From an uncultured Candidatus Binatia bacterium (lineage in GTDB: Bacteria; Desulfobacterota; Binatia; UBA9968; JAJDTQ01): DNA of 64,000 nucleotides. The notes beneath the pieces were generated by a model. It was not told the origin of the DNA. It saw nothing but the letters and a program-made list of their open reading frames with translations, and did not search any database. The first letter of the stretch is position 1. Each line of letters begins with the position of its first letter. Location: positions 1,408,001 to 1,472,000 of the forward strand of contig OZ219754.1 of assembly GCA_964291295.2 (NCBI GenBank), read 5' to 3'. The position numbers and the translations under genes were made by a program. Shown here piece by piece: positions 19,600-52,325 of this stretch.

Positions 19600-22008
19600 T
19601 CAGAAAGTGCGGCGCCAGCCGGCCAGAATGCTCCACTCGGGGCCGGCGGCCGCGTCGTGGCCGGGATGCCGGCTCCAGCCCGCGCCCAGGCGCAGTTCGC
19701 CGCCGTTGTCGAGGGAATGGCGCCACTGGGCGGCGATGTCGATCTGCCAGCCGGTGGGTTCGAGGTCCGCGGTCATGGACCGGCGCACGACCCGCCCGTC
19801 TTTGGTGCGGCCCACCGGGATCGAAAGCCTGGCCCGCCCGGCTTCCACACGCAGGGGCCGCCCCACCGACACCGCCAGCGCGTCCCGGCCGCCCAGCGCC
19901 CTTTCCGCACGCAGCACGAACGCACTGGTCGTCAGCGGCGACACGCTTGCGAGCATTCCGCCGCTCACCGCCGTCTTCACGGTGCCGATTTCCGCTCCCG
20001 CGGCCAGGCGCCACGCGCCGGCCCGGAATTCGCCCTCCAGGCCGGCGAAGGCGGACTGGCCCGCCAGCCGGCCGAAGGCGCCGCTCACCTTGCTGCCGAG
20101 CAGGGTCCGGCGCTCGCCCACCATGCCGCCCACAAGGATGAAGGGCTGTTCCGGGGGCCGCCATGTCAGGGCCGCGCCCGACGCCGGCGTCCGGCCCCGC
20201 ATTCCTTCGGTCGAGAAGGCGGCAAAGCCGAATCCGTGCCACCTCGGCACGCCCACCGTCAGGGCCGGCCCGGCCAGGGAAAGGTGTCCGCCGCCGGCGC
20301 CGAAGGGCGCCGCGCCCAGAAGGCCCAGGCGGAACGGGAGGGGTTCCGCGTCCCCTGCGCGGGCGGTCAGCGGGATGGCGCCGGGCCGCAGGATGCCGCC
20401 GGGCTGGCCGGTCCGGGGCGGTGCCATGAAGGATCGCAGCCGGGCGGTCAGGGCGGGGCCGGAGGCGCCGCTGACAAGGCCGCCGAGGGGAAACCAGAAC
20501 GGCGCCCCCAGCGTGTCGAAGGCCACGATTTCCCCGCCGCCGGAGAACGCCTGCGCAAGCCCGTTGCCCAGCGCGCCGCCGGGCGTGAAGCGGGTCCGCG
20601 CCACATGGTTGCCGGGGCTGTCGATGCGCCCGCCCAGCGTGACGGTGGTGACGCCGACCGGTGCCGTGGCGGCGCCCAGGTCCATCAGCCCCTGGCCGTA
20701 GACGCGGCTGTCGGCGTAGATGCCCTGTTTGTTGGCCGTCGCCAGCAGCCGGGCGGCCAACTCCGTGTTGGTCATCTGGCCGCGGAAAAGCTGCTTCATC
20801 ACCATCAGCCCGCCGGTCACGAACGGCGCGGCAAAGGACGTGCCGCTGCCAGTGGCGACGCCCCGCGTGCCAGGGAGGCCGTGGGTGGGGTCGGGTCCGA
20901 AATAGGCTGCCTTGACGGCCTCCCCGGGCGCCGCGATGCACCACCGCGCCGCGATGCCGCAACGGTTGGAGAACGGGGTGATTTCGTAGTCCCCGCCGCC
21001 ATCGCTGTCGGGCGCAACGGCGACGACGGCGAGCACGTGCCCGCGCAGTTCGGCGATGCGCGCCGGCAGGCCGGGTTGGATCTGGACCGACCGGGCGTTG
21101 ACGCGTCCGCCCAAGCAGAGGCCGGAGTTGCCGGGGAAGTCCGCCGGGTCGCAGGGTTTGTCGTGGGCGTTGCCGGCCGCGAACACGAAAACGGTCTTGT
21201 CGGGCGCGCCGGTCTGCGCCAGCGCGGCGATGGTCCCGCCCAGACTCCCGCGCAGCCCCTGTTCGTCGTACTGGTCGATGATTCCGCTGTAGCCCCAGCT
21301 CGCATTGACGAAATCGATCTTCCGGCCGTCGTGGGACCAGTTGGCGGCGCGGGTGAATGCTTGCGCAAGCCTGTCCTCGTCACTGCTCAGGGAGTCGAGG
21401 GAAATCGGAACATACGGGCCGCCGCCCTGTCCGAGCCTGACGGCGAGCAGCGCCAGGTCGGCGCCCGGTGCGACCCCGTGCGCAGCGCCCCGGGCGGTAT
21501 GCGCGGCCGTCGGCCGCCCGGCGATTACGCTCGCGACCATCGTGCCGTGCGAGGAGATGCGGCCGCCGGCGGCACCCGTTCCATCAAGGATGTGCTCGCT
21601 CACCGTCTTGCGGGCAAACGCCGGGTGGCCGGTATCGAGACCGTCGTCGATCAGCCCGGCGGTTTGACCGCCGCCCGGTTCGACGCCGGTGCCGTGCGCC
21701 AGTTCGAGTTGCGCATAGGCCCGGTCCGCGCGGATCGCGGCCAGGCCCCACTGGTTTTTGAACTCCGCCCGGCCGCCATGGCGCGCGGCCAGCGTCTGAC
21801 GCTCCCGCCGCCAACTCTGCGCGGAGAGGCACCCGAAATCCGCGGTTGGAATGGCGTCCGGCGGCGTGCAGACAGGCGCCGTCCGCGGCGGCTCGGGCGG
21901 CCGGGGAGGGCCAGCCGCGCCGCCGCCGCACGCTGAAACGAGCAGGGCCGAAACGAGCAGCGGCGGGAGCAGCGCGGCCGCACCGGGCAGGCGCCGGCCA
22001 GATGCCAT
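19600..22008 (-). CDS. Lipidated S8 subtilisin-like protease with autotransporter-type C-terminal beta domain
   Basis: Lipobox LVSA-C, Pro-rich linker, catalytic LIDDG / SHGT / GTSFAAP, AAGN; C-terminal amphipathic strands ending in WRRTF. Confidence 0.85.
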   Translation of the reverse strand: MASGRRLPGAAALLPPLLVSALLVSACGGGAAGPPRPPEPPRTAPVCTPPDAIPTADFGCLSAQSWRRERQTLAARHGGRAEFKNQWGLAAIRADRAYAQLELAHGTGVEPGGGQTAGLIDDGLDTGHPAFARKTVSEHILDGTGAAGGRISSHGTMVASVIAGRPTAAHTARGAAHGVAPGADLALLAVRLGQGGGPYVPISLDSLSSDEDRLAQAFTRAANWSHDGRKIDFVNASWGYSGIIDQYDEQGLRGSLGGTIAALAQTGAPDKTVFVFAAGNAHDKPCDPADFPGNSGLCLGGRVNARSVQIQPGLPARIAELRGHVLAVVAVAPDSDGGGDYEITPFSNRCGIAARWCIAAPGEAVKAAYFGPDPTHGLPGTRGVATGSGTSFAAPFVTGGLMVMKQLFRGQMTNTELAARLLATANKQGIYADSRVYGQGLMDLGAATAPVGVTTVTLGGRIDSPGNHVARTRFTPGGALGNGLAQAFSGGGEIVAFDTLGAPFWFPLGGLVSGASGPALTARLRSFMAPPRTGQPGGILRPGAIPLTARAGDAEPLPFRLGLLGAAPFGAGGGHLSLAGPALTVGVPRWHGFGFAAFSTEGMRGRTPASGAALTWRPPEQPFILVGGMVGERRTLLGSKVSGAFGRLAGQSAFAGLEGEFRAGAWRLAAGAEIGTVKTAVSGGMLASVSPLTTSAFVLRAERALGGRDALAVSVGRPLRVEAGRARLSIPVGRTKDGRVVRRSMTADLEPTGWQIDIAAQWRHSLDNGGELRLGAGWSRHPGHDAAAGPEWSILAGWRRTF

Positions 22009-22207
22009 CAAGCGCCTCACGACGGTGATTCCTTCGCCCTTCGCCGTATTCGGCTGGCACCTGTTCGCGGCGAGAGGAAGGAGACGATACGGAGGATGAT
22101 ACCGGAGACGATACCGTCGCGGTTCCGGATGGCTTCGATCCAGGGTGTGTTGACACGATTCATGACCGGCTCCGGCTCCACCATCGATGAGACTGCCGGG
22201 GTGGCGC

Positions 22208-22249
22208 GGCGTCGTCACACACGGCGTCGTCACACACGGCGTCGTCACA
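22208..22249. repeat. 15-nt tandem repeat GGCGTCGTCACACAC x~2.8 at the NYN gene stop
   Basis: Direct reading. Confidence 0.9.
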
Positions 22250-22754
22250 GCTTGGCCAGGTAGTCCCGGCGTCTCCGCTCGCTCCTGGAAAGCCGCCGGG
22301 GGTTGCCTTTCTTTTGCCCGTCCCGGCCCCGGGGCGGACCGCCGTCGTCGTCCTCCATGGGATCGGGCGCCCCCGGAACCGGTCTCATCCTGGCGAGAAA
22401 CTGATTGACGTACACGGCCACGGCGCCGCTCCTCTCCACGCTGCGGCGCAGTTCGCGATCGGAGGTCACGACCACGCACGTGTCCCCCAGTTCGCGGGCA
22501 AGGCGTTCGATGACGGCGTCGGCCTTCTCTCCGTAGCGGGAGAACACGACCGTCACTTCCCCCACCTGCTCGCGTGTCTCTTCGGTACGGCCGGCCCGCC
22601 ACCCGTCGAAGACGGTGGTCAGCCAATGGCCGGTGCGCGCCTGGTATCGGGCCGCCTCCCTGATGAGGTCGGTGCGCTTCTGCTCCAGATCCCCGCGCAG
22701 GCCATGTTCGCTGCCGATGACGTTGTAGCCGTCGACCACGATATGGAACGGCAT
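22245..22754 (-). CDS. NYN-domain ribonuclease (YacP/Rae1-like)
   Basis: IVVDGYNVI, TVFDG, ADAVIE, VVTSDREL. Confidence 0.88.
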   Translation of the reverse strand: MPFHIVVDGYNVIGSEHGLRGDLEQKRTDLIREAARYQARTGHWLTTVFDGWRAGRTEETREQVGEVTVVFSRYGEKADAVIERLARELGDTCVVVTSDRELRRSVERSGAVAVYVNQFLARMRPVPGAPDPMEDDDGGPPRGRDGQKKGNPRRLSRSERRRRDYLAKL

Positions 22755-22836
22755 GGATGGATTCTCCGTGTGAACCGACGTGAAGTCCCGAAATATACCC
22801 GCTTCCGCCAACGGGTGCGAATGCGGCCGAGGAGTG

Positions 22837-23606
22837 AGCATATTCCAACAAGAAGATGAGGCTATGCAGGGTGCCGCGGGAGGGTGGAGGGTTCGACCAC
22901 GAGGTTGATGAGGTAGAGCGCTTGGCACCGTCGCGGTCGCTCTGCTGGACGGTGTCCACGCGCAGCGGCGGTTGGGCTGCGGGGCGCGCCGTTCGTCCAC
23001 GGTCCCGGCGTCCGCACGGGTGCCGACGACAACGGTGCGGACGCCTCGGGTAGATACGGGAGCCACGCAGTTTCTAGAGGTGGTTCGGCCGAGATCTCGG
23101 CCCGCGGCTCGAAGCGCGGATCCCGGAAGGGATGGAACAGGGGCTGCAGCACCACCCGCGTGGCCAAGCCTGACATCTGGCCCAAGTCCTCGTCCACCCG
23201 CGCCAGTAGTCGCATGACCGCCGGCGAGCAGAGCCGGGCGAAGGGCGGTAGCCCTGGCGTCGGTGCACGACCCGGCTGGTCTTGCGGAACGGGCGAATCA
23301 GCGGGGTGCTCGAGAGTAGGCGGTGGTCTTTTCCAGAAAGCGCATCACCGGCGTTTTGGACGGTTTGTCCAAACCACTGTAGCCGAGGCGCCCCAAGGTC
23401 GGTTTGAGGAACTCGCAGGTGTCGGTGGGGTGAAAGTCTACAGGCTTGCGCGCCTCGACGAAGGCGGCAATCGGTTCGATAGTGCCCAAGGGTACCGTTC
23501 GAGGTGTCACGATCATTTTATGACGATCCCCGACACCCCAGCTTCAGGCTCACATTGCATTGGAATCGCTTCAGGCTTTCAGGCTCACATTGCGTTGGAC
23601 AAGACT
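22837..23606 (-). mobile_element. Internally deleted IS remnant retaining the transposase 5' part
   Basis: Ends AGCATATTCCAACAAGAAGATGAGG and TTCAGGCTCACATTGCGTTGGACAAGACT shared with 27078-27771; frameshifted MIVTPRT...FLEKTTAYSRA and RLLARVDEDLGQMSGLATR fragments. Confidence 0.7.
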
Positions 23607-23611
23607 GCTGC

Positions 23612-23640
23612 TTGACAGTGGGGGGGGGGGGGGGTAAAGT
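23612..23640 (+). promoter_or_regulatory. Putative phase-variable sigma70 promoter with poly-G spacer
   Basis: TTGACA (23612-23617), GT + G15 (17-nt spacer), TAAAGT (23635-23640). Confidence 0.7.
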
Positions 23641-23701
23641 CTGAATCCGTGACAGGATCACGAGGGTATCGACGTGGCGGCGCTGGCCGAATCCGACTTG
23701 G

Positions 23702-23800
23702 GGAAGGTCCGAACGACCCCGGATTTGCTGGGGCTGAATCAATACAATCCACAGGTTGTGAGTGGCTCAATGTCGCGCCATGGCCTTGTTCGGACGTTCC
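23702..23800. mobile_element. 99-bp IS5-type MITE with 4-bp target duplication
   Basis: TIRs GGAAGGTCCGAACG / TGTTCGGACGTTCC (12/14 match), flanked by TTGG on both sides. Confidence 0.7.
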
Positions 23801-24024
23801 TTGGACTTCATGGGGTGAGGCACGCGATTGCGAAGGAGTTGAGCAATTTATCCATGAGGAAGTGAGAAGGACGACTTTGACGGCATAAGCAAGACGGATC
23901 GGGAGACTTGTTCAAACCATACCCTCCTGAATGCCTGCTGAGGTTGCCGGAGGGAAGTTCCGTGGCATTGTGCCAAGGCCCGTCGTACCAGAGCTGTTTT
24001 TGAAGGCGGCAGGGGAGCTCGAGA

Positions 24025-25848
24025 ATGAAAAGGACGAGGAGAATATTGATGTACGGAATGATGCACGGGATGATGCACGGGATGATGCACAGGAACCTGG
24101 CGGCGGTCTTCTGCGCGGTGGTGTTGGCCTTCGGGCTGGCGGCATGCGGAGGCAGCAGCAACAACAACCGGACCCCGGCGACGACCCCGGATCCGCCGCC
24201 GGCGGGGCCGACGGCAGTGGAGACGGCGATCAAGGAGGCCCGGACGGCGGCGATGGCGGCGTCGGGCAAGGCCAAGACGGCGTCGGACAACGCGGGGACG
24301 TCGGCGGATGAGGCGGAAGCGGCGATCCTGGGTGTCGTGCCCGTTTTCACTCCCAAGGGGGAGATGACGGCGAAGAGCTACGCGGATGCGGCCCGGACGG
24401 CGGCGGACATGGCGAAGGCGGAGTACGACAAGGCCAAGATGGAGTCGGACAAGGCTGCGGCCACGAGCGACTTGCGTGTGGCGGCCCAGGCCGAAGTCGC
24501 AGCCGAGGCGGCGCAGGCGAAGGCCGAGGCTCAGGCGGCGATGGCCGCGGAAAAGGCGAAGATGGCGAAGGAGGCCGCGGCCAAGGAGGTTCGGCGTGTC
24601 GAGGGCATGACCTACAGGTACGGCGACACGACCATCACGGCGGGTGCACCCTATGCCAAGCTCACGACCGGGGGCAAGACCATCGAGACCGGCAAGCGCG
24701 GCAACATCGACGAGAAATCACGGAATTACCGAAAGGAACCCGTCCAATACGTGGCGGCAACGGCAAACAAGCCGGAGGTGGTTTCCCGGACGGGAATCCA
24801 TGCACGGACCATCCCCGTCGGTTCCTACAACGACTCGGAGAAGTCCCGTTTCTGGCTGATGGACAAGTATGTCCGCAACACCAAGGGGGTGAAGGCCTAC
24901 CGCAGGGCGAAGGACGCCAGCGATCAGCCCATCAACGTGACCGCCCCGATCACGGTCGAGAACCCGTTCGGTTCGGTCACGGTAGGGGAAAAGACCTACA
25001 AGGTCATGCGGGCGGAGGGGGAGTTCCATATTCTTGATACCCCGGAGTCGAAGAAACTGGACAAGACGAATGCCTGGGACTGGATCAATGGGGGCACCAA
25101 GGACGCGAATGCGGGCGTGGGCGTCTACTACTACAACAACGGCAGCAAGGACATCTATCTTCTGCGCACCGGAACGAGCGGGACCGACAACTTCACCTAC
25201 CGGCAGATTTTCGTCTACGATGTGCCGGATTTCCCGGAGGCGAGGCCCTATGAGCACATGAACTACGGGATGTGGCACACGCAGAAGTCAGGCAGGACCA
25301 ACCTTGGCATCTCATTCGTCACGGTGCTGCCCGATGGCGAGGGCATGACCCCGGCGGCCAACATGCCAGGCTTCGGCAGTGCCACCTACAGGGGTAATGC
25401 AATTTGGCAACACCGCGCACAGCACGCTCAAGGCGAAGGAGGTATCTCCGGTCTTGACGGAACCTCAACCACAACGGTGGATTTCGGGAAAAGCACCATC
25501 AAGACCGATATTTATCGCGCGCACTTCTTGTTGCAAGGCGGATATGACGGGATTATCGCCACATTCCACGGCACCATCGACGGGAACGGGTTCTCGGGCA
25601 GCAAAGTGACCAATGTCAACGCCGAAGGCGCCGGCTACGATACACCGGGATTTCTGGCTGGCTATCAGGCCCGCCATCGTACTGCATTGAAGCTGGCCAC
25701 GAGCGTGGACGGCAGCCTGTACGAGGTGAGGGAGTACAGCGGCCATTTCTTCGGGCCGGACGCCGAAGAGGTGGGCGGCGTGTTCGACATCACGTCCAAG
25801 GACAAGAAGAACGGCGAGTTGCGCGGCTCCTTCGGCGGCCGCAGGTAG
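24025..25848 (+). CDS. Surface lipoprotein A: Ala-rich stalk plus C-terminal TbpB-like beta-barrel (predicted Slam substrate)
   Basis: Lipobox LAA-C, Ala/Lys/Glu coiled-coil, MP..GSATYRG, GHFFGPDAEEVGGVF...GSFGGRR; directly upstream of a Slam gene. Confidence 0.85.
   Translation: MKRTRRILMYGMMHGMMHGMMHRNLAAVFCAVVLAFGLAACGGSSNNNRTPATTPDPPPAGPTAVETAIKEARTAAMAASGKAKTASDNAGTSADEAEAAILGVVPVFTPKGEMTAKSYADAARTAADMAKAEYDKAKMESDKAAATSDLRVAAQAEVAAEAAQAKAEAQAAMAAEKAKMAKEAAAKEVRRVEGMTYRYGDTTITAGAPYAKLTTGGKTIETGKRGNIDEKSRNYRKEPVQYVAATANKPEVVSRTGIHARTIPVGSYNDSEKSRFWLMDKYVRNTKGVKAYRRAKDASDQPINVTAPITVENPFGSVTVGEKTYKVMRAEGEFHILDTPESKKLDKTNAWDWINGGTKDANAGVGVYYYNNGSKDIYLLRTGTSGTDNFTYRQIFVYDVPDFPEARPYEHMNYGMWHTQKSGRTNLGISFVTVLPDGEGMTPAANMPGFGSATYRGNAIWQHRAQHAQGEGGISGLDGTSTTTVDFGKSTIKTDIYRAHFLLQGGYDGIIATFHGTIDGNGFSGSKVTNVNAEGAGYDTPGFLAGYQARHRTALKLATSVDGSLYEVREYSGHFFGPDAEEVGGVFDITSKDKKNGELRGSFGGRR
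24046..24093 (+). repeat. 12-nt in-frame repeat ATGATGCACGGG (MMHG) x3-4 in the signal peptide region
   Basis: Direct reading; also present at about 49088-49135. Confidence 0.9.
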
Positions 25849-25928: not shown

Positions 25929-25952
25929 CGACAGCCGCCGGGGAGGCTGTGG

Positions 25953-27060
25953 ATGAACCGTTACACGAGTTTCGTTGGCATTTCGTTGGCACAATGCTGC
26001 TCGCGCTGGTTCTGGCGACCGCGCCCGCGGAGGGCCAGCAGCCGCCTCCGGAGCTGTCCGCCGAGGCGCTGATCGATACCGCGCGGGCGGCCTTGGCAAA
26101 GGGCGAGCCGGAAGACGCCGCGTTCCTGCTCGACGGTGTGAAACCGGGCGAGGGGAACCCCGACGATCTCGACTTTCTGCGCGGCTCCATCGCGATGCAG
26201 CGCGGGGAGTGGCAGGAGGCGATGGCACGGTTCCGGGCGATGCTGGCGCGCAATCCCGATCTGCCCCGGGTGCGGCTCGACTTGGCGTTGGCCTATTTTC
26301 AGGCAGAGGATGACGGCAATGCGGCCTGTCATTTCCGCCTGGCGCTGGGTGCGAAGGACCTGCCCGAGACGGTGCGCGCCTCGGCGCTCGCCTTCCTCCA
26401 CCGCATCCGGCGGCGCAAGCGATGGTCGGTTACCGGCTCGGTGGCGGTTGTGCCCGACACCAACAGCAACGCCAGGACCGATGCCCGGGAGATCCTCCTG
26501 TTCGGCCAGCGGGCCACGCTGTCGGAGGATGCGCGCCGGACCAGCGGCGTCGGGGTGACGGTCAGCCTGTCGGGCGGTTACGAAGGGCGGATTTCGCCCG
26601 ACCTGCGGTTCCGGGTCGGCGGCGGGCTCCGGACGCGAACCTGCCGGGAGAGCGATTTCAACGAACAGATCGTCGAACCTGTACGCCGGGCCGCGCTTCC
26701 TGTTCGACAAGTTCGACCTGCGTCCCGACGTAACCGCGCGGCAGCGCTGGCTCGGCGGCACCGCCTGCAGCTTGGCGCTGGGTATCGGGCTTTCGGGCGG
26801 GGCAGACATGGCGGCTGGGCGCGTCGCTCAGTCGCGAGCGGATCGACTACGAGGAGGGCAATCTCGGCGAGGGCAACCTCGATTCCGTCGGGCTCAACCT
26901 CACCCATGCGCTGGACAAGGCGACGCTGTTGCGGGCCGACATCACATGGAGCAGTGAGACGCTGGACCTGGACCCCCATTCCTGGCGTGAGTTCCTCATC
27001 GGATTGACGGTTTCACGCGAGTTGCCCCCGGGCTTCGTGGCCAGCGGGGGGACCACTTGG
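25953..27060 (+). pseudogene. Disrupted Slam (DUF560) copy
   Basis: Near-identical to 51000-52100 but with an 11-nt duplication at 25970-25991, +1 G near 26675, an 11-nt deletion near 26798, and truncation just before the IS end. Confidence 0.85.
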
Positions 27061-27077: not shown

Positions 27078-27771
27078 AGCATATTCCAACAAGAAGATGA
27101 GCCTGTGCAGGGGGCCGCGGGAGGGTTGAGGGAGGCAGAGTGGAGGAGTTGCCTCGTGAGGGTAATCCATGAGCTGTTTTCGGGAGAGGTTTCTGGAAGA
27201 GACAGGGTATCGGAGGGGGTGCGGAGGGGAGAGGAAGTGATCAAGGAGAGTGGTCGATGGAGAGGAAGAGGTGGTTGCGGGCGGCGTTGAGGGCACGTGC
27301 GGCTTGCAGGCGGCTCGTGGCGTGGGCTTGGGCGTCGAGGGTGGCGAAGGAGATGCCGGGTTTGAGCGAGGCTGCGGCGTCGGGGAGGGAGCGGAACCTG
27401 GCGTAGGGGGTGCAGACGTCGCCGGGGCGATAGACGCGCTGGATGGAGCCGGGGTGCTGGGAGGGGAACAGACAGGGGCGGTGGTAGTTGAGGAAGGGGG
27501 AGATGTGCTGGCGGAGGAAGGCATCGAGCAGGGGGCGAAGCGCGTGGGCATGGCCGAGGAAGCGTCGCAGGACGTGGGCATTCTTGCTTTCGACAAGGGA
27601 GTTGTCGGTGGAACGCCGTGGTCGGGACTTGGTGAAGTCTCGGACATGCAGTTTGTTGAGGAGTGTGGTTGATGTACTCCGAGCCATTGTCGGCATGGAA
27701 ACCGAGGATGACGAAGGAAAACAGGCCGATTCGCTTCACGCTTTCAGGCTCACTTTGCATTGGACAAGACT
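27078..27771 (-). mobile_element. Internally deleted IS remnant retaining the rve/DDE catalytic 3' part
   Basis: GFHADNGSEYIN, FTKSRPRRSTDNSLVESKN, FLNYHRPCLFP, TPYARFRSLP; same terminal sequences as 22837-23606. Confidence 0.8.
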
Positions 27772-27936
27772 GGGTTTCGCCAGGGCGCGAGAAATGTTGT
27801 AAGCTCGGTGATCCGGGGCCGCCCCGGGTTCGGTGCCCGGCCTCGGTGCCCGGCCTGAGGCTTGGGCGGCGTTGCCGCCGTCAGGCCCGAACCGACAACT
27901 CGGCGAGTACCGAGAGTGGAAAGCGAGTCGCGAGTG

Positions 27937-45246: not shown

Positions 45247-46971
45247 ATGAGAAAGATGAGGATGTTGGTGCACAAGAATCTGGCGGCGGTCTGTTGCGCC
45301 ATCATGTTCGCCTTCGGGCTTGCGGCATGCAGTAGCAGCAGCAACAACAAGACGGTGGTGACCGAAGCCGAGAAAACCATAAATACGGCCCGTACGGGGG
45401 CCATGAGTGCGGCGACGGCGGCCAAGACGGCGTCGGACAACGCCAAGGAGGCGGTCGATGAGGCGGACGCGGCGGTCATGGCTGTTGCCCCCATTTTTAC
45501 GATGACGGGCGGCGATGACGGCACCGTGAATCTGGCCGGCCTGGTGAAGGAGGGCCGCGATGCGGCCGGCATGGCGGAGGAGTACAATCAAGAGACCAAG
45601 ATGGAGTCCGACAAGGCTGCGGCCGCGGAAACGGTGACGGCGGCAGCCGATGCCAGGGCGAAAGCGGAGTTGGCCCAGGAGAAAGCCGAAGCCCAGGCGC
45701 GGATAGCCGCTGAAAAGGCCAAGATGGCGACGGATGCCGCCGCGAAGGGAATCAAGGTCTCCGGCGATACGGACATGGCGAGGACGTACGGTTTCGGCGA
45801 CACTTCCATCACTCCCGCCGCCTTGCCCAAGAAAAATTCGGACACGAGTGTGGTCAACGGCAAGACGGTCACGAAGACGACGGGCCTCATAGGTACGGCC
45901 GACGGCCACGCCCCCATGGTGGATGTCGCCGCAGTCATGTACCTGGCCAAGAGCGGCAGTACTCCGGAGCGCAAGGCCAAGCCGGCGATCGAGAAACGGA
46001 CGTTTACGTTCGCCAAGGCATACGACTCGGCAGACGACGGAAGCCGCCTCTGGCTCGCCACCCAGTATGCCGCTGGCAGGGCCGTGCACACGTTCCGTGA
46101 CACCTCTGGCTCGCTCGATCTCGAAAAGACCGACGATGCGACATGGGGCGCTCACGATCATGACAGCGACTCCAGTACGGCGAAGCTGAAGGTGATGAAG
46201 GCGACCGGCATGTTCTACATGGCCTCCGGCTCGGGGGCTTTTGACCAGACGAACCCCTCGAGCGCCACGATCGAGGACGAAACGAAGGTGAACAAGGATA
46301 TCTTCTACTACCAACATCCCACCGAAGGGAAAAAGTGGTTGAGGCGGACCCAGTCCGTGACCCCCACAGGCGAAGCGACCACTCATACCTATATGAACGT
46401 GAGCGTCGTCGAGAATGTCATGGGCTTTCCGGTGGCGACCGACTACATACATGTCAACTACGGCATATGGATCGGCAATCTGAAGGCCGACGGTGACGAC
46501 AGCGACGCCGACCTTACCGAACTTGGCACGGGGTTTGCCTCTGCCAAGGCGGGCAAAGGCATGACCGGGGAGATGCCGGACTCCGGCACGGGCACCTACA
46601 AGGGCTCTTATCTCGTGTCCTATCGCAAGGCCCACGCGGATGGCAACGGCAGCCTCATGTCCAGTGCGAATCACTCGACAGTGACGGCGGACTTCGCGAA
46701 GGCGACCGTGATGGTCGATTTGCATTCCCTCGCCAAGCTTGAGGGCACAATCGCCGGGGACAGGTTCTCGGGAACCAAGGTCTCCAGCGTGACCGGTATG
46801 GTGGGCGAGACAGCGGTTCTGACGGCAAGTGCGGACGGCAGCGGTTACACGGGCAGTTTCAGCGGCGGTTTCTTCGGACCCCAGGCGGCGGAAGTCGGCG
46901 GCGTGTTCTCCTACACGTCGAAGGACAAGAAGAATGGCGAATTCCGTGGCTCCTTCGGCGGAGCCAAGTAG
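45247..46971 (+). CDS. Surface lipoprotein B, Ala-rich stalk plus TbpB-like barrel
   Basis: LAA-C lipobox; MPDSGTGTYKG; GGFFGPQAAEVGGVF...GSFGGAK. Confidence 0.85.
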   Translation: MRKMRMLVHKNLAAVCCAIMFAFGLAACSSSSNNKTVVTEAEKTINTARTGAMSAATAAKTASDNAKEAVDEADAAVMAVAPIFTMTGGDDGTVNLAGLVKEGRDAAGMAEEYNQETKMESDKAAAAETVTAAADARAKAELAQEKAEAQARIAAEKAKMATDAAAKGIKVSGDTDMARTYGFGDTSITPAALPKKNSDTSVVNGKTVTKTTGLIGTADGHAPMVDVAAVMYLAKSGSTPERKAKPAIEKRTFTFAKAYDSADDGSRLWLATQYAAGRAVHTFRDTSGSLDLEKTDDATWGAHDHDSDSSTAKLKVMKATGMFYMASGSGAFDQTNPSSATIEDETKVNKDIFYYQHPTEGKKWLRRTQSVTPTGEATTHTYMNVSVVENVMGFPVATDYIHVNYGIWIGNLKADGDDSDADLTELGTGFASAKAGKGMTGEMPDSGTGTYKGSYLVSYRKAHADGNGSLMSSANHSTVTADFAKATVMVDLHSLAKLEGTIAGDRFSGTKVSSVTGMVGETAVLTASADGSGYTGSFSGGFFGPQAAEVGGVFSYTSKDKKNGEFRGSFGGAK

Positions 46972-47182
46972 CAGGTCGTCGTCGGTTCACTGAGTGGGGC
47001 GCGCTGTCCATCTCCGGACCGGGCGCCTCGCATCGTGGCGGCTGACGGGCGGAAGCCACGCGGTTCCGGGCAATGATCGCCAAGGTTGTTTTCGCCGGGA
47101 CCGTTTGGGGACGTTCCACGAGACAGGATGTTCAAGGGCTTCGTCCCGAGGCTGTTTCTGAAGGCGAAAGGAGAGTTCGGAC

Positions 47183-48943
47183 ATGAGAAAGATGAGGATG
47201 TTGGTGCACAAGATGGTACACAAGAACTTGGCGGCGGTCTGTTGCGCCGTCATGCTCGCCTTCGGGCTTGCGGCATGCAGTAGCAGCAGCAACAAGACGG
47301 TGGTGACCGAAGCCGAGAAAACCATAAATACGGCCCGTACGGGGGCCATGAGTGCGGCGACGGCGGCCAAGACGGCGTCGGACAACGCCAAGGAGGCGGC
47401 CGATGAAGCGGACGCGGCGGTCATGGCTGTTACCCCCATTTTTACCATGACGGGCGGCGGTGACGATCCCGTGAATCTGGCCGGCTTGGCGAAGGAGGCC
47501 CGCGATGCGGCCACCAACGCGGAAAAGTACAATCAAGAGACCAAGACGGAGTCCGACAAGGCCGCGGCCGCGGAAACGGTGACGGCGGCAGCCGACGCCA
47601 GGGCGGCAGCGGAGTTGGCCCAGGAGAACGCCGAAGCCCAGGAGCGGATAGCCGCCGAAAAGGCCAAAATGGCGAAGGATACCGCCGCGATGGGAATCAA
47701 GGTCTCCGGCGATACGGATATGGCGAGGACGTACAGTTTCGGCGACACGTCCATCACCCCCGCCGCCTTGACCGGCAAGAAGGTGGAGACGAGGCTGGTC
47801 AACGGCAAGGAAGTCACGCTGTCGACGAATCTCATAGGCGATTTCAAGGTTTCCCTCAAGGAGGACGTTGCTGGAGTCGAGGGTACGGCTGCGTCAGGGG
47901 GTACCCCGGAGGTCAAGGCCAAGCCGATAATCGAAGCACGCGAGACCTTGGTCGGGAAGATATACGACTCGGCGGACGACAAGACCCGCCTCCTGCTCTT
48001 CACCCACTACACCGGCAGCAAGGTCGTAGGCGCGTACCGCACAGTCAACACCAAGACGGTCGAGGGCAAAGTGACCCCCAATGCGGAACACGGCGAGTAC
48101 GATCATGATAATGATGACGAAACGCCTAGCTTGAAGGTGATGAAGGCGGCCGGTGAGTTCTACCTGGTCACCGGCTCGGGGGCTTTGAGCGCGAGCAGTC
48201 ACACCGACAAGATCGAGAAGGCCACGAAGGCCACCCCGATCTACTACTACACCGAACCCGCCGAGGGATCGACGCCGAGCAAGAAGATCTGGATCGTGCG
48301 AAGCAAGACCAAAGACGAAGCCGGAACGATCACATACGAATACCAGGACGTGAGTGTCGTCGAGAACGTCAAGGGCTTTCCGGTGGCGACTCCCTATCAG
48401 CATCTCAATTACGGCATGTGGATTGGCAATCTGAAAGCCAATGGTGATGACAGCGATGCCGACCTTGCCGAACTCGGAACGGCGTTTGTCGTTGCCAAGG
48501 CGGGCGGCAAGGGTATGACCGGCGGTGACATGCCGGCCAGCGGCACGGCCACCTATGACGGCCATTACGTCGTGACATTTCGCGCCAAGAAAGCGACAGG
48601 CGACGGTCGCTTCCATTACAGGTCGGATCACTCGACATTGACAGCAAATTTCGCGAATGACACCGTCATGGTCGATCTGTACGGCCTCGCCACACTCGAG
48701 GGCACCATCAAGGGCGACTGGTTCTCGGGAACCAATGTTTCCGGGGTCGCTCCGCTGAGCGACAAGCCAGCCAATGATTTTCTTGAGGCGGACACGAGCG
48801 GTGCCAATTACACGGGCACGTTCAGCGGCGGCTTCTTCGGACCCAAGGCTGCGGAAGCCGGCGGCGTGTTCGACTACACGTCGGAGGGCAGGAAGAAGGG
48901 CGAATTCCGCGGAGCCTTCGGCGGAGTCAAGCAGGCGGAGTAG
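47183..48943 (+). CDS. Surface lipoprotein C, paralog of B
   Basis: N-terminal ~190 aa nearly identical to B; MPASGTATYDG; GGFFGPKAAEAGGVF...GAFGG. Confidence 0.85.
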   Translation: MRKMRMLVHKMVHKNLAAVCCAVMLAFGLAACSSSSNKTVVTEAEKTINTARTGAMSAATAAKTASDNAKEAADEADAAVMAVTPIFTMTGGGDDPVNLAGLAKEARDAATNAEKYNQETKTESDKAAAAETVTAAADARAAAELAQENAEAQERIAAEKAKMAKDTAAMGIKVSGDTDMARTYSFGDTSITPAALTGKKVETRLVNGKEVTLSTNLIGDFKVSLKEDVAGVEGTAASGGTPEVKAKPIIEARETLVGKIYDSADDKTRLLLFTHYTGSKVVGAYRTVNTKTVEGKVTPNAEHGEYDHDNDDETPSLKVMKAAGEFYLVTGSGALSASSHTDKIEKATKATPIYYYTEPAEGSTPSKKIWIVRSKTKDEAGTITYEYQDVSVVENVKGFPVATPYQHLNYGMWIGNLKANGDDSDADLAELGTAFVVAKAGGKGMTGGDMPASGTATYDGHYVVTFRAKKATGDGRFHYRSDHSTLTANFANDTVMVDLYGLATLEGTIKGDWFSGTNVSGVAPLSDKPANDFLEADTSGANYTGTFSGGFFGPKAAEAGGVFDYTSEGRKKGEFRGAFGGVKQAE

Positions 48944-49079
48944 TCGGAGTAGTAACAGATCGCCGTCATCGGCGGCGGTTCACGGAGCGAGGCGTCCGGC
49001 GGGACGAAGCCTAGACGCTTGCTGAATGCGTCCTGTGATGCTGCCGGAGGGAAGTTCCGCGCCAAGGAGTTCGAGAACG

Positions 49080-50894
49080 ATGAGGATATTGATGTACGGA
49101 ATGATGCACGGAATGATGCACGGGATGATGAACAGGAACTTGGCGGCGGTCTTCTGCGCGGTGGTGTTGGCCTTCGGGCTGGCGGCATGCGGCGGCAGCA
49201 GCAACAACAACCGGACCCCGGCGACGACCCCGGATCTGCCGCCGGCGGGGCCGACGGCAGTGGAGACGGCGATCAAGGAGGCCCGGACATCGGCGATGGC
49301 GGCGTCGGGCAAGGCCAAGACGGCGTCGGACAACGCGGGGACGTCGGCGGATGAGGCGGAAGCGGCGATCCTGGGTGTCGTGCCCGTTTTCACTCCCAAG
49401 GGGGAGATGACGGCGAAGAGCTACGCGGATGCGGCCCGGACGGCGGCGGACATGGCGAAGGCGGAGTACGACAAGGCCAAGATGGAGTCGGACAAGGCTG
49501 CGGCCACGAGCGACTTGAGTGTGGCGGCCGAGGCCGAAGTCGCAGCCGAGGCGGCGCAGGCGAAGGCGGAGGCTCAGGCGGCGATGGCCGCGGAAAAGGC
49601 GAAGATGGCGAAGGAGGCCGCGGCCAAGGAGGTTCGGCATGTCGAGGGGATGACCTACGGGTACGGCGACACGACCATCACGGCGGGTGCACCCTATGCC
49701 AAGCTCACGACCGGGGGCAAGACCATCGAGACCGGCAAGCGCGGCGGCATCAACGAGGCCTCACGGGATTTTCGAAAGGAACCGGTCCGATACGTGAAGG
49801 CAACCGAAAGCAAGCCGGAGGTGGTTTCCCGGACGGGAATCCATGCACGGACCATCCCGGTCGGTTCCTACAACGACTCGGAGAAGTCCCGTTTCTGGCT
49901 GGTCGAAAAGTATGTCACCAACACCAAGGGGGTGAAGGCCTACCGCAGGGCGAAGGACGCCAGCGATCAGCCCATCAACGTGACCGCCCCGATCACGGTC
50001 GAGAACCCGTTCGGTTCGGTCACGGTAGGGGAAAAGACCTACAAGGTCATGCGGGCGGAGGGGGAGTTCCATATTCTTGATACCCCGGAGTCGAAGAAAC
50101 TGGACAAGACGAATGCCTGGGACTGGATCAATGGGGGCACCAAGGACGCGAATGCGGGCGTGGGCGTCTACTACTACAACAACGGCAGCAAGGACATCTA
50201 TCTTCTGCGCACCGGAACGAGCGGGACCGACAACTTCACCTACCGGCAGATTTTCGTCTACGATGTGCCGGATTTCCCGGAGGCGAGGCCCTATGAGCAC
50301 ATGAACTACGGGATGTGGCACACGCAGAAGTCAGGCAGGACCAACCTTGGCATCTCATTCGTCACGGTGCTGCCCGATGGCGAGGGCATGACCCCGGCGG
50401 CCAACATGCCAGGCTTCGGCAGCGCCACCTACAGGGGTCATGCAGTCTGGCAACGCCGCGACCCGCACGCTCAAGGCGAAGGAGGTATCGGCGGTCATGA
50501 GGGGAACTCAACCACGACGGTGGATTTCGGGAAAAGCACCATCAAGACCAATATTTTTGACTGGCACTACACGTCGCAAGGCGGATCCAACGGGATTCTC
50601 GCCACATTCCACGGCACCATCGACGGGAACGGGTTCTCGGGCAGCAAAGTGACCAATGTCAACGCCGAAGGCGCCGGCTACGATACGCCGGGGTTTTTTG
50701 CTGGCTATCAGGCCCGCCATCGTACTGCATCGAAGCTGGCCACGAGCGTGGACGGCAGCCTGTAGTACGAGGTGAGGGAGTACCGCGGGAATTTCTTCGG
50801 GCCGGACGCCGAAGAGGTGGGCGGCGTGTTCGACATCACGTCCAAGGACAAGAAGAACGGCGAGTTGCGCGGCTCCTTCGGCGGCCGCAGGTAG
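49080..50894 (+). pseudogene. Surface lipoprotein D (paralog of A) interrupted by an in-frame TAG at 50763-50765
   Basis: CTGTAGTAC versus CTGTAC in A; frame continues YEVREYRGNFFGPDAEEVGGVF...GSFGGRR to the stop at 50894. Confidence 0.82.
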
Positions 50895-50932
50895 TAAACA
50901 GGTCGCCGTCACCGGCGGTGGTTCACGGAGCG

Positions 50933-50973
50933 GGGCGCCCGATCCATCTCCGGATCGGGCGCCCTTTTCTTTT
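50933..50973 (+). terminator. Intrinsic terminator/attenuator between lipoprotein D and slam
   Basis: Same 13-bp stem and T tract as 25887-25928. Confidence 0.8.
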
Positions 50974-50999
50974 CCAGACAGCTGCCAGGGAGGCTGTGG

Positions 51000-52325
51000 A
51001 TGCACGTTTACATGAGTCTGGTTGGCACAATACTGCTCGCGCTGGTTCTGGCGACCGCGCCCGCGGAGGGCCAGCAGCCGCCTCCGGAGCTGTCCGCCGA
51101 GGCGCTGATCGATGCCGCACGGGCGGCCTTGGCAAAGGGCGAGCCGGAAGACGCCGCGTTCCTGCTCGACGGTGTGAAACCGGGCGAGGGGAACCCCGAC
51201 GATCTCGATTTTCTGCGCGGCTCCATCGCGATGCAGCGCGGGGAGTGGCAGGAGGCGATCGCACGGTTCCGGGCGATGCTGGCGCGCAATCCCGATCTGC
51301 CCCGGGTGCGGCTTGACTTGGCGTTGGCCTATTTTCAGGCGGAGGATGACGGCAATGCGGCCTATCATTTCCGCCTGGCGCTGGGTGCGAAGGACCTGCC
51401 CGAGACGGTGCGCGCCTCGGCGCTCGCTTTCCTCGACCGCATCCGGCGGCGCAAGCGATGGTCGGTTACCGGCTCGGTGGCGGTTGTGCCCGACACCAAC
51501 ATCAACGCCAGGACCGATGCCCGGGAGATCCTCCTGTTCGGCAGCCAGCGGGCTACGCTATCGGATGATGCGCGCCGGACCAGCGGCGTCGGGGTGAATG
51601 TCAACATGTCGGGCGGTTACGAAGGGCGGGTTTCGCCCGACCTGCGGTTCCGGGTCGGCGGCGGGCTCCAGACGCGAACCTACCGGGAGAGTGATTTCAA
51701 CGAACAGATCGTCAACCTGTACGCCGGGCCGCGCTTCCTGTTCGACAAGTTCGACCTGCGTCCCGACGTGACCGCGCGGCAGCGCTGGCTCGGCGGCACC
51801 GCCTACAGCTTGGCGCTGGGTATCGGGCTTTCGGGCAATTGGCTTGTGGGGCAGACATGGCGGCTGGGCGCGTCGCTCAGTCGCGAGCGGATCGACTACG
51901 AGGAGGGCAATCTCGGCGAGGGCAACCTCGATTCCGTCGGGCTCAACCTCACCCATGCGCTGGACAAGGCGACGCTGTTGCGGGCCGACACCGCATGGAG
52001 CAGTGAGACGCTGGACCTGGACACCCATTCCTGGCGCGAGTTCCTCGTCGGATTGACGGTTTCGCGCGAGTTGCCCCTGGGCTTCGTGGCCAGCGGGGGG
52101 ACCACCTGGCGCTGGCGCCGATACGGCGCGGCTCATCTCTTGTACGGCCCGGAGGCGCGGCGGGAACGGACGCTTGCCCTGCGCAGCACGCTGTCCAACC
52201 GGAATGTCGAGATTTTCGGCTTCATGCCCGAAATCGCCCTGCGCCACGAGCGGCGGGACAGCAACGTCGCGTACTACGACTACACGCGCACGGTTGGCGA
52301 ACTCGGCATGGTCAGGACATTCTGA
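51000..52325 (+). CDS. Surface lipoprotein assembly modulator Slam (TPR + DUF560 outer-membrane barrel; type XI secretion)
   Basis: Signal peptide, TPR with RVRLDLA motif, PDTNIN, RRDSNVAYYDY, terminal RTF; adjacent TbpB-barrel cargo genes. Confidence 0.85.
   Translation: MHVYMSLVGTILLALVLATAPAEGQQPPPELSAEALIDAARAALAKGEPEDAAFLLDGVKPGEGNPDDLDFLRGSIAMQRGEWQEAIARFRAMLARNPDLPRVRLDLALAYFQAEDDGNAAYHFRLALGAKDLPETVRASALAFLDRIRRRKRWSVTGSVAVVPDTNINARTDAREILLFGSQRATLSDDARRTSGVGVNVNMSGGYEGRVSPDLRFRVGGGLQTRTYRESDFNEQIVNLYAGPRFLFDKFDLRPDVTARQRWLGGTAYSLALGIGLSGNWLVGQTWRLGASLSRERIDYEEGNLGEGNLDSVGLNLTHALDKATLLRADTAWSSETLDLDTHSWREFLVGLTVSRELPLGFVASGGTTWRWRRYGAAHLLYGPEARRERTLALRSTLSNRNVEIFGFMPEIALRHERRDSNVAYYDYTRTVGELGMVRTF

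Follow-up and report, generated by a model that had tools for sequence, protein, structure and literature searches.

A candidate contingency promoter with a poly-G spacer ahead of a Slam-type surface lipoprotein gene in an uncultured bacterium

The promoter-like sequence at positions 23612 to 23640 of the window, the 64-kb stretch of DNA analysed here, is a real and well supported candidate contingency promoter; the kind itself is already known. Its spacer consists almost entirely of G, and it is directed at the gene for a Slam-type surface lipoprotein. Judged from sequence, the locus is probably a slipped-strand (simple-sequence-repeat) contingency promoter of the porA kind. What is unusual here is scale and coherence. 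About 35 unusually long tracts (12–27 nt) are distributed over every classical gene class, a Slam-lipoprotein family of 17 members would be under two kinds of switch, and the promoter sits on an IS-like end module.

Organization of the promoter region

The genome comprises 3.70 Mb in three contigs with 66% G+C, and the tract lies inside the 3.65-Mb contig. The features of the locus, in window coordinates, are as follows.

22837..23617, minus strand: degenerate IS-like repeat with broken open reading frame fragments (23298–23516, 22862–23215); its right-hand end holds the promoter module
23543..23603, plus strand: upstream module, TTCAGGCTCACATTGC[A/G]TTGGA twice (23543–23564, 23578–23599), the second copy running into TTGGACAAG (23595–23603)
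23612..23617, plus strand: -35 hexamer TTGACA, 8 nt 3' of TTGGACAAG
23620..23634, plus strand: G15 homopolymer, which together with 'gt' (23618–23619) makes up the 17-nt spacer (23618–23634)
23635..23640, plus strand: -10 hexamer TAAAGT; transcription start predicted near 23647
23641..24024, plus strand: long leader, 87–99% conserved across three aligned paralogous copies
24025..25848, plus strand: surface lipoprotein gene, 607 aa; signal peptide with lipobox LAAC/GGSS, N-terminal region helical and rich in Ala, Lys and Glu, C-terminal barrel of the TbpB type
25949..27060, plus strand: Slam (surface lipoprotein assembly modulator) pseudogene with an intact TPR_Slam part; its barrel part is scattered across three frames and truncated by an IS-like remnant
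27078..27773, minus strand: another IS-like remnant, which ends in the same module (TTCAGGCTCACTTTGCATTGGACAAGACTG, 27737–27773)

The preliminary description had reported a TTGACA and a TAAAGT 17 nt apart with 15 consecutive G between them, and this is exact in the sequence; the spacing is indeed consensus-optimal at the assembled tract length. Its statement that no other homopolymer is as long holds for the 64-kb window, which has no other G/C run of at least 10 (C1:1431620 corresponds to window position 23620). The direction it had assigned is also borne out: the tract faces the Slam-type surface lipoprotein gene, whose ATG at 24025 lies 384 nt past the -10 hexamer. A consensus scan of both strands from 23200 to 24200 returned TTGACA-17-TAAAGT as the sole sigma-70-like site, with 10 of 12 hexamer matches; in 50 shuffles, the same scan gave a mean of 0.2 sites. 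A promoter closer to the gene, missed by so simple a scan, is possible within the 384-nt leader. Assigning an 'ON' state to the promoter depends on the assembled G15 being exact, and the true length may differ from it by one or two bases.

An Rfam search of 23400–24200 gave no match at E values up to 1, and no terminator-like site was found on the plus strand of the leader. The leader also contains a dispersed repeat of about 100 nt (23696–23806) with inverted ends (GGAAGGTCCGAACGA ... TTGTTCGGACGTTCC). At least 10 further copies of this repeat occur in the genome, at 79–91% identity.

The lipoprotein gene, its paralogs and Slam

The signal peptide with its lipobox cysteine can be read from the sequence (...VVLAFGLAAC/GGSSNNN). 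Residues 447–607 match the C-terminal barrel family PF01298 (TbpB_B_D) with an E value of 3.4e-17 and 63.6 bits (cut-off 26). Against NCBIfam NF041636 (slam_lipo) the protein scores 46.2 bits, under the cut-off of 80; by this comparison of sequences it is a divergent relative of that family, not an equivalog. An AlphaFold2 model built on a four-sequence alignment is poor (mean pLDDT 44.9), with strands predicted at 447–607. The N-region of the signal peptide contains a 12-nt in-frame tandem repeat (24052–24090, encoding GMMH) in three copies. Elsewhere the repeat number is two (C1:2553464 and C1:2164526) or one (C1:1848193), and it is a second, in-frame repeat polymorphism of the lipoprotein family.

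Intact Slams (PF04575) are encoded at window positions 51000–52325, behind three paralogs, and at C1:884988. The former belongs to a second lipoprotein cluster (45247–52325), in which tandem TbpB_B_D paralogs at 45247–46971, 47183–48943 and 49026–50765 are followed by the intact Slam (PF04575, TPR_Slam). These tandem paralogs are 43–44% and 93% identical to the 607-aa lipoprotein. No long homopolymer was found in or before this array. Given the adjacent Slam pseudogene and the flanking IS-like debris, the locus at 23612 could be decaying; the lipoprotein frame is intact nonetheless.

The genome encodes 17 near-full-length lipoprotein paralogs, plus fragments. When 700 nt upstream and the first 300 nt of each gene were searched, four were found to have a promoter tract, five a coding tract and eight none. 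The coding tracts are poly-C and lie about 12 codons past the lipobox cysteine. Four of the five (C16, C19, C19 and C22) are in frame, and hence ON, and one (C20) is out of frame. This proportion argues that assembled tract lengths are mostly right and meaningful.

A recurrent promoter module on IS-like repeats

The -35 hexamer is one element of a module that recurs in the genome, TTCAGGCTCAC(A/T)TTGCA-TTGGACAAG-N8-TTGAC(A/C). The core TTGGACAAG occurs 37 times in the genome, against about 12 expected, and the longer TTCAGGCTCAC..TTGCA prefix is present on about 20 of these occurrences. Eight module sites have TTGAC[AC], and the offset TTGGACAAG-N8-TTGAC[AC] is identical at all of them. Five of the eight have no tract; there, TAnnnT follows at 16, 17, 17, 18 and 18 nt over spacers that are unrelated, and the genes 3' of these copies are diverse. 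Retention of TAnnnT at 16–18 nt despite unrelated spacers indicates that the module behaves as a working promoter. The three sites with a tract have spacings of 17 (the locus at 23612), 19 and 19 nt, and a fourth tract-bearing lipoprotein copy has G17 plus one A, with a spacing of 20 nt. The module homologs provide the best internal evidence that the hexamers would form a working promoter, for which 17 nt should be permissive and 19–20 nt should not.

The module terminates a degenerate IS-like repeat roughly 0.7 kb long, of which the genome has at least eight other copies, at 80–85% identity. The copies have in common an N-terminal fragment of 72–75 aa, broken every time. The search for a family match found no intact transposase and nothing significant, the one hint being to an integrase core (rve_3, E value 0.14), on a sister remnant. 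From these sequences we infer that the promoter module is probably the end of an old insertion sequence with an outward promoter. The lipoprotein cassette is bracketed by two IS-like remnants in the same orientation, which may account for its duplication. Upstream of the first remnant, 19600–23066 on the minus strand holds a 1119-aa subtilase (Peptidase_S8) frame and an NYN_YacP-domain frame.

Differences in tract length

A paralogous copy (C1:2552273–2555383) matches the window at 98.2% identity along 3.1 kb, yet carries G17 rather than G15. Paralogous promoter tracts of G17 are located at C1:2553056, C1:1847782 and C1:2164767 (spacer 19–20). Among paralogous tract pairs with both 150-nt flanks more than 80% alike, 13 of 17 differ in length. 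When the pairs are restricted to tracts of at least 10 with both 150-nt flanks at least 94% identical, five of six differ; the sixth has equal tract lengths and has lost the T after the tract. In a G9 pair with identical flanks the length is unchanged. Near-identical paralogs with unequal tracts indicate that tract length changes much faster than the surrounding sequence, a pattern that assembly errors would also produce.

This stretch is represented in three sequencing runs of one study, as contigs only and with no RNA run on record. Contigs of two runs (X1 and X2), one of which derives from a SNP-distinct strain, contain TTGACAGT and, directly after it, 13 or more G. In X1 as in X2 the contig is 453 nt long and its last position is 23632; no contig bridges the tract. 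A G13 variant read from these contig ends was considered and rejected, since a k=31 graph must branch there. The 17-nt left flank is shared with the paralog at C1:1847782, so the 31-mer of 17 nt plus G14 is common to both, and the X1 and X2 contigs stop 13 G into the tract. Exact-pattern scans that allowed the promoter module a tract of whatever length gave no other copy in JGI metagenome contigs or species-representative genomes.

Genome-wide census of long G/C tracts

Counts of G/C runs of lengths 5 to 11 in the genome are 5592, 938, 117, 15, 8, 2 and 0, a decay of about six- to eightfold per extra base up to length 8. If this decay is extrapolated, far fewer than one run of at least 12 is expected. 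The genome has 35 runs of 12–27 (37 of at least 10), so that the census is bimodal and the long runs form a separate class. On the plus strand, 22 of the 35 read G and 13 read C; six are of 12–14 and most are of at least 15.

The 37 runs fall largely into four groups of genes. (i) Eleven tracts are of the promoter type, lying 0–5 nt past TTGAC(A) and followed by TA... or AGTA...; all have G on the sense strand, and four are upstream of lipoprotein paralogs and seven upstream of RTX-repeat proteins. The pattern TTGAC-N0-4-G12 occurs at nine loci (14 matches) in the genome, and the reversed pattern at none. (ii) Five are the coding tracts of the lipoprotein paralogs. (iii) Eight are associated with giant fn3 proteins, at or just before the 5' end. 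(iv) Five, of G17–G27, lie in or at restriction-modification genes (C1:43450, 485035, 605882, 737307 and 829088), with domains that include Mrr_cat_2 + ResIII + N6_Mtase, DUF1156 and N6_N4_Mtase. In two cases the gene is split or cut short where the tract lies, and from their sequences the group are candidate phase-variable methyltransferases of a phasevarion-like kind. The rest are two short coding tracts (G10 and G12) in RTX genes and six runs in no group.

The largest of the fn3 frames, C1:2348994–2381378, is open for 10,795 codons; fn3, PKD, Calx-beta and Ig-like domains occur in its first 3000 residues, and C21 lies near its 5' end. Seven further fn3 proteins (1800–2400 aa) have C14–C23 at the same relative place, beside GC-rich hairpins.

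Slam-type lipoproteins, RTX proteins, giant fn3 proteins and restriction-modification genes are gene classes of known phasomes. The bimodal census, the restriction of tracts to surface, secreted and restriction-modification genes, and the in-frame state of four of five coding tracts together imply that long tracts have been selected for. The genome encodes MutS and MutL, as mismatch-repair genes likewise are in Neisseria, which means that slippage rates are not raised by loss of mismatch repair.

Relatives and a sponge-associated gammaproteobacterial genome

Long tracts are common in the genus: a G12 occurs at least once in 21 of the 24 genomes examined, compared with 2 of 11 genomes of a sister family. 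Three complete congeners have 29, 23 and 13 runs of at least 13, in paralogous contexts and of unequal lengths. Congener G023 (L047, L059 and L062) has G15, G26 and G22, and congener G009 (L046, L049 and L058) has G27, G16 and G24. Read by eye, the G023 tract appears to follow the start codon and precede the signal peptide. Slam (PF04575) is encoded in 25 of 28 genus genomes. A TTGAC..G12 match was found in 1 of 27 other genus genomes, and the promoter-spacer design is therefore nearly confined to this species, with no deep conservation to lean on. A DNA search with the promoter and leader against 40 relatives gave no counterpart, only two marginal 74-nt matches.

In metagenome contigs, the lipoprotein has two relatives, 28% identical and without informative tracts. 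An exact look-up of four proteins from the window gave two singleton clusters, neither with a name. Its sole relative in the species-genome collection is in a sponge-associated metagenome-assembled genome (MAG) of Candidatus Poriferihabitaceae (Gammaproteobacteria; G041, L073–L081), whose 16S sequence is 81% identical to that of this genome. The MAG encodes nine lipoprotein paralogs. Eight of them are preceded by the conserved module ATGATTACAATnnCTTA-Cn-AATTTCC, in which the tract ranges from C12 to C27. Three of its lipoproteins have poly-G (G16–G20) directly past the lipobox Cys codon, and lipoprotein genes account for 12 of the 32 runs of at least 12 in the MAG. There, TTGA..G12 is not enriched (5 matches, against 7 for the reversed control), and the tract lies past a TACAAT-like hexamer, not between -35 and -10. 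In view of this position, the switch in Poriferihabitaceae may act at or just after the transcription start, a geometry that differs from that of the 23612 locus. The recurrence of homopolymers with the lipoprotein family in a distant lineage gives independent support for a functional link.

Proposed mechanism and alternative explanations

The proposed mechanism rests on spacing. RNA polymerase with the housekeeping sigma factor would need about 17 nt between TTGACA and TAAAGT, of which 15 are G. Replication slippage would add or remove G residues and move the spacing away from 17 nt, and transcription of the lipoprotein would then be lowered or turned off, reversibly and at random. This model presumes variation of the tract within living populations, a transcription start near the predicted position and G15 as the ON state. 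The locus would be one unit of the genome-wide set of about 35 long G/C tracts. With nine of 17 lipoprotein paralogs possessing a switch of their own (four in the promoter spacer, five as coding poly-C), cells of one population could display different combinations of lipoproteins.

Several other explanations have to be weighed. The promoter might be real and its G tract a drifting filler, with length shifting on the timescale of gene duplication and the gene fixed as expressed or silent in each strain. Length differences are seen only between paralogs and mismatch repair genes are present, as this account would have it; it is unlikely, in that runs of 15 G are, to our knowledge, highly slippage-prone in every system studied, and the bimodal census, the restriction to certain gene classes and the in-frame coding tracts imply selection. 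Alternatively, the G run could be a mobile-element junction or recombination scar of no regulatory role, the lipoprotein being driven from elsewhere in the 384-nt leader. The -35 hexamer does lie in a module that ends a degenerate repeat of at least eight copies, the cassette is located between two IS-like remnants, and the final 100 nt or so of the leader are common to paralogs that have no tract. A scar would not explain why all five tract-less TTGAC[AC] module copies have TAnnnT at 16–18 nt, nor why seven RTX genes display the TTGAC..Gn..TA design without the long IS-like repeat, and 23200–24200 contains no second promoter-like site; this explanation is a poor prospect.

The run could also work through structure rather than spacing, for example as a non-template-strand G-quadruplex that modulates transcription or recombination. 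Fifteen G are the minimum for a three-tetrad quadruplex with one-base loops, most tracts reach this length, and in each of the 11 promoter tracts the sense strand carries the G. Against this, six of the 35 tracts are only 12–14 long, coding tracts are poly-C on the sense strand and their lengths respect the frame, and spacing by itself accounts for the 16–18 nt rule at homologs without a tract; a structural role in place of spacing is highly improbable. A sequencing or assembly artefact (two-colour poly-G or homopolymer inflation) is barely credible. Long homopolymers are, as far as we know, error-prone on all sequencing platforms, and in some fragmented genus genomes (contigs of G017 and G015) runs are found at contig ends, at positions 5–230. 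The run described here lies in the interior of a 3.65-Mb contig. Runs of this type are found in either orientation, paralogs have them at homologous positions, the genes concerned are functionally coherent, and four of five coding tracts are in frame; the G run is also present in contigs of two sequencing runs, the SNP-distinct strain included. A slipped-strand contingency promoter remains the preferred reading.

Implications

Contingency loci are known mostly from a few host-adapted pathogens. The present data tentatively raise the prospect of Neisseria-style surface variation in uncultured, apparently non-pathogenic bacteria, in which nine of 17 Slam-type lipoproteins would be toggled individually within a phasome of about 35 tracts (RTX, giant adhesin-like fn3 and restriction-modification genes included). 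The pairing of Slam lipoproteins with homopolymers would then have spread, or have originated more than once, among bacteria that live with hosts or in the environment. Should the genus belong to Binatia, both Slam (in 25 of its 28 genomes) and the homopolymer pairing would lie outside Proteobacteria. Random surface switching would, if the system is confirmed, be a general strategy of uncultured bacteria, and the way would be open to study how such bacteria cope with hosts, phages and grazers. The system would also be tractable, as long-read metagenomes give tract lengths directly. There is also a warning for annotation: what looks like a frameshifted 'pseudogene' or a silent promoter in a MAG of this kind may be one state of a switch.

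Comparison with known systems

The preliminary description had presented the locus as new for its lineage, and full-text literature searches are in keeping with this, no report of such loci in this kind of organism being among the matches listed. Searches on phase variation or homopolymeric tracts in sponge symbionts, MAGs and Binatia/Binatota yielded nothing relevant among the best 10–15 matches listed.

The vlp genes of Mycoplasma hyorhinis form a surface lipoprotein multigene family in which each gene has its own promoter-spacer homopolymer, resulting in combinatorial coats. The vlp tracts are poly-A and belong to a wall-less Mollicute without Slam, whereas promoter and coding switching are combined here in one family. 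In tpr subfamily II of Treponema pallidum and in Bordetella fim2/fim3, poly-G or poly-C is situated in or beside the promoter spacer of surface-protein paralogs, in GC-richer genomes. These differ from the present locus in gene family and in activator dependence, and the tpr and fim tracts are shorter. The opc and fetA promoters are of the same poly-G kind as porA.

For porA of Neisseria meningitidis, the account of promoter variants in PMC3639595 places poly-G between -35 and -10 and describes graded expression, with 11G high, alongside 10G and 9G variants; according to the same account (PMC3639595), the 9G, 10G and 11G variants arise in culture. Common to porA and the candidate promoter at 23612 is poly-G between the two hexamers ahead of a surface-protein gene. 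The 23612 locus differs in having G15 instead of 9–11, near-consensus hexamers, a 384-nt leader, a -35 hexamer on a recurrent IS-like end module and an uncultured lineage as its setting.

The Neisseria hpuA gene (HpuAB haemoglobin receptor), which encodes a Slam2-dependent surface lipoprotein, is described as phase variable via poly-G in its open reading frame (PMC3786947), and Slam2 as specific for HpuA, itself phase variable (PMC7857515). Slam-type lipoprotein and homopolymer are thus paired in both, and five paralogs here have a coding homopolymer near the N-terminus. At the 23612 locus, by contrast, the tract is in the promoter, the family comprises 17 paralogs instead of one gene, and only the C-terminal barrel matches TbpB_B_D.
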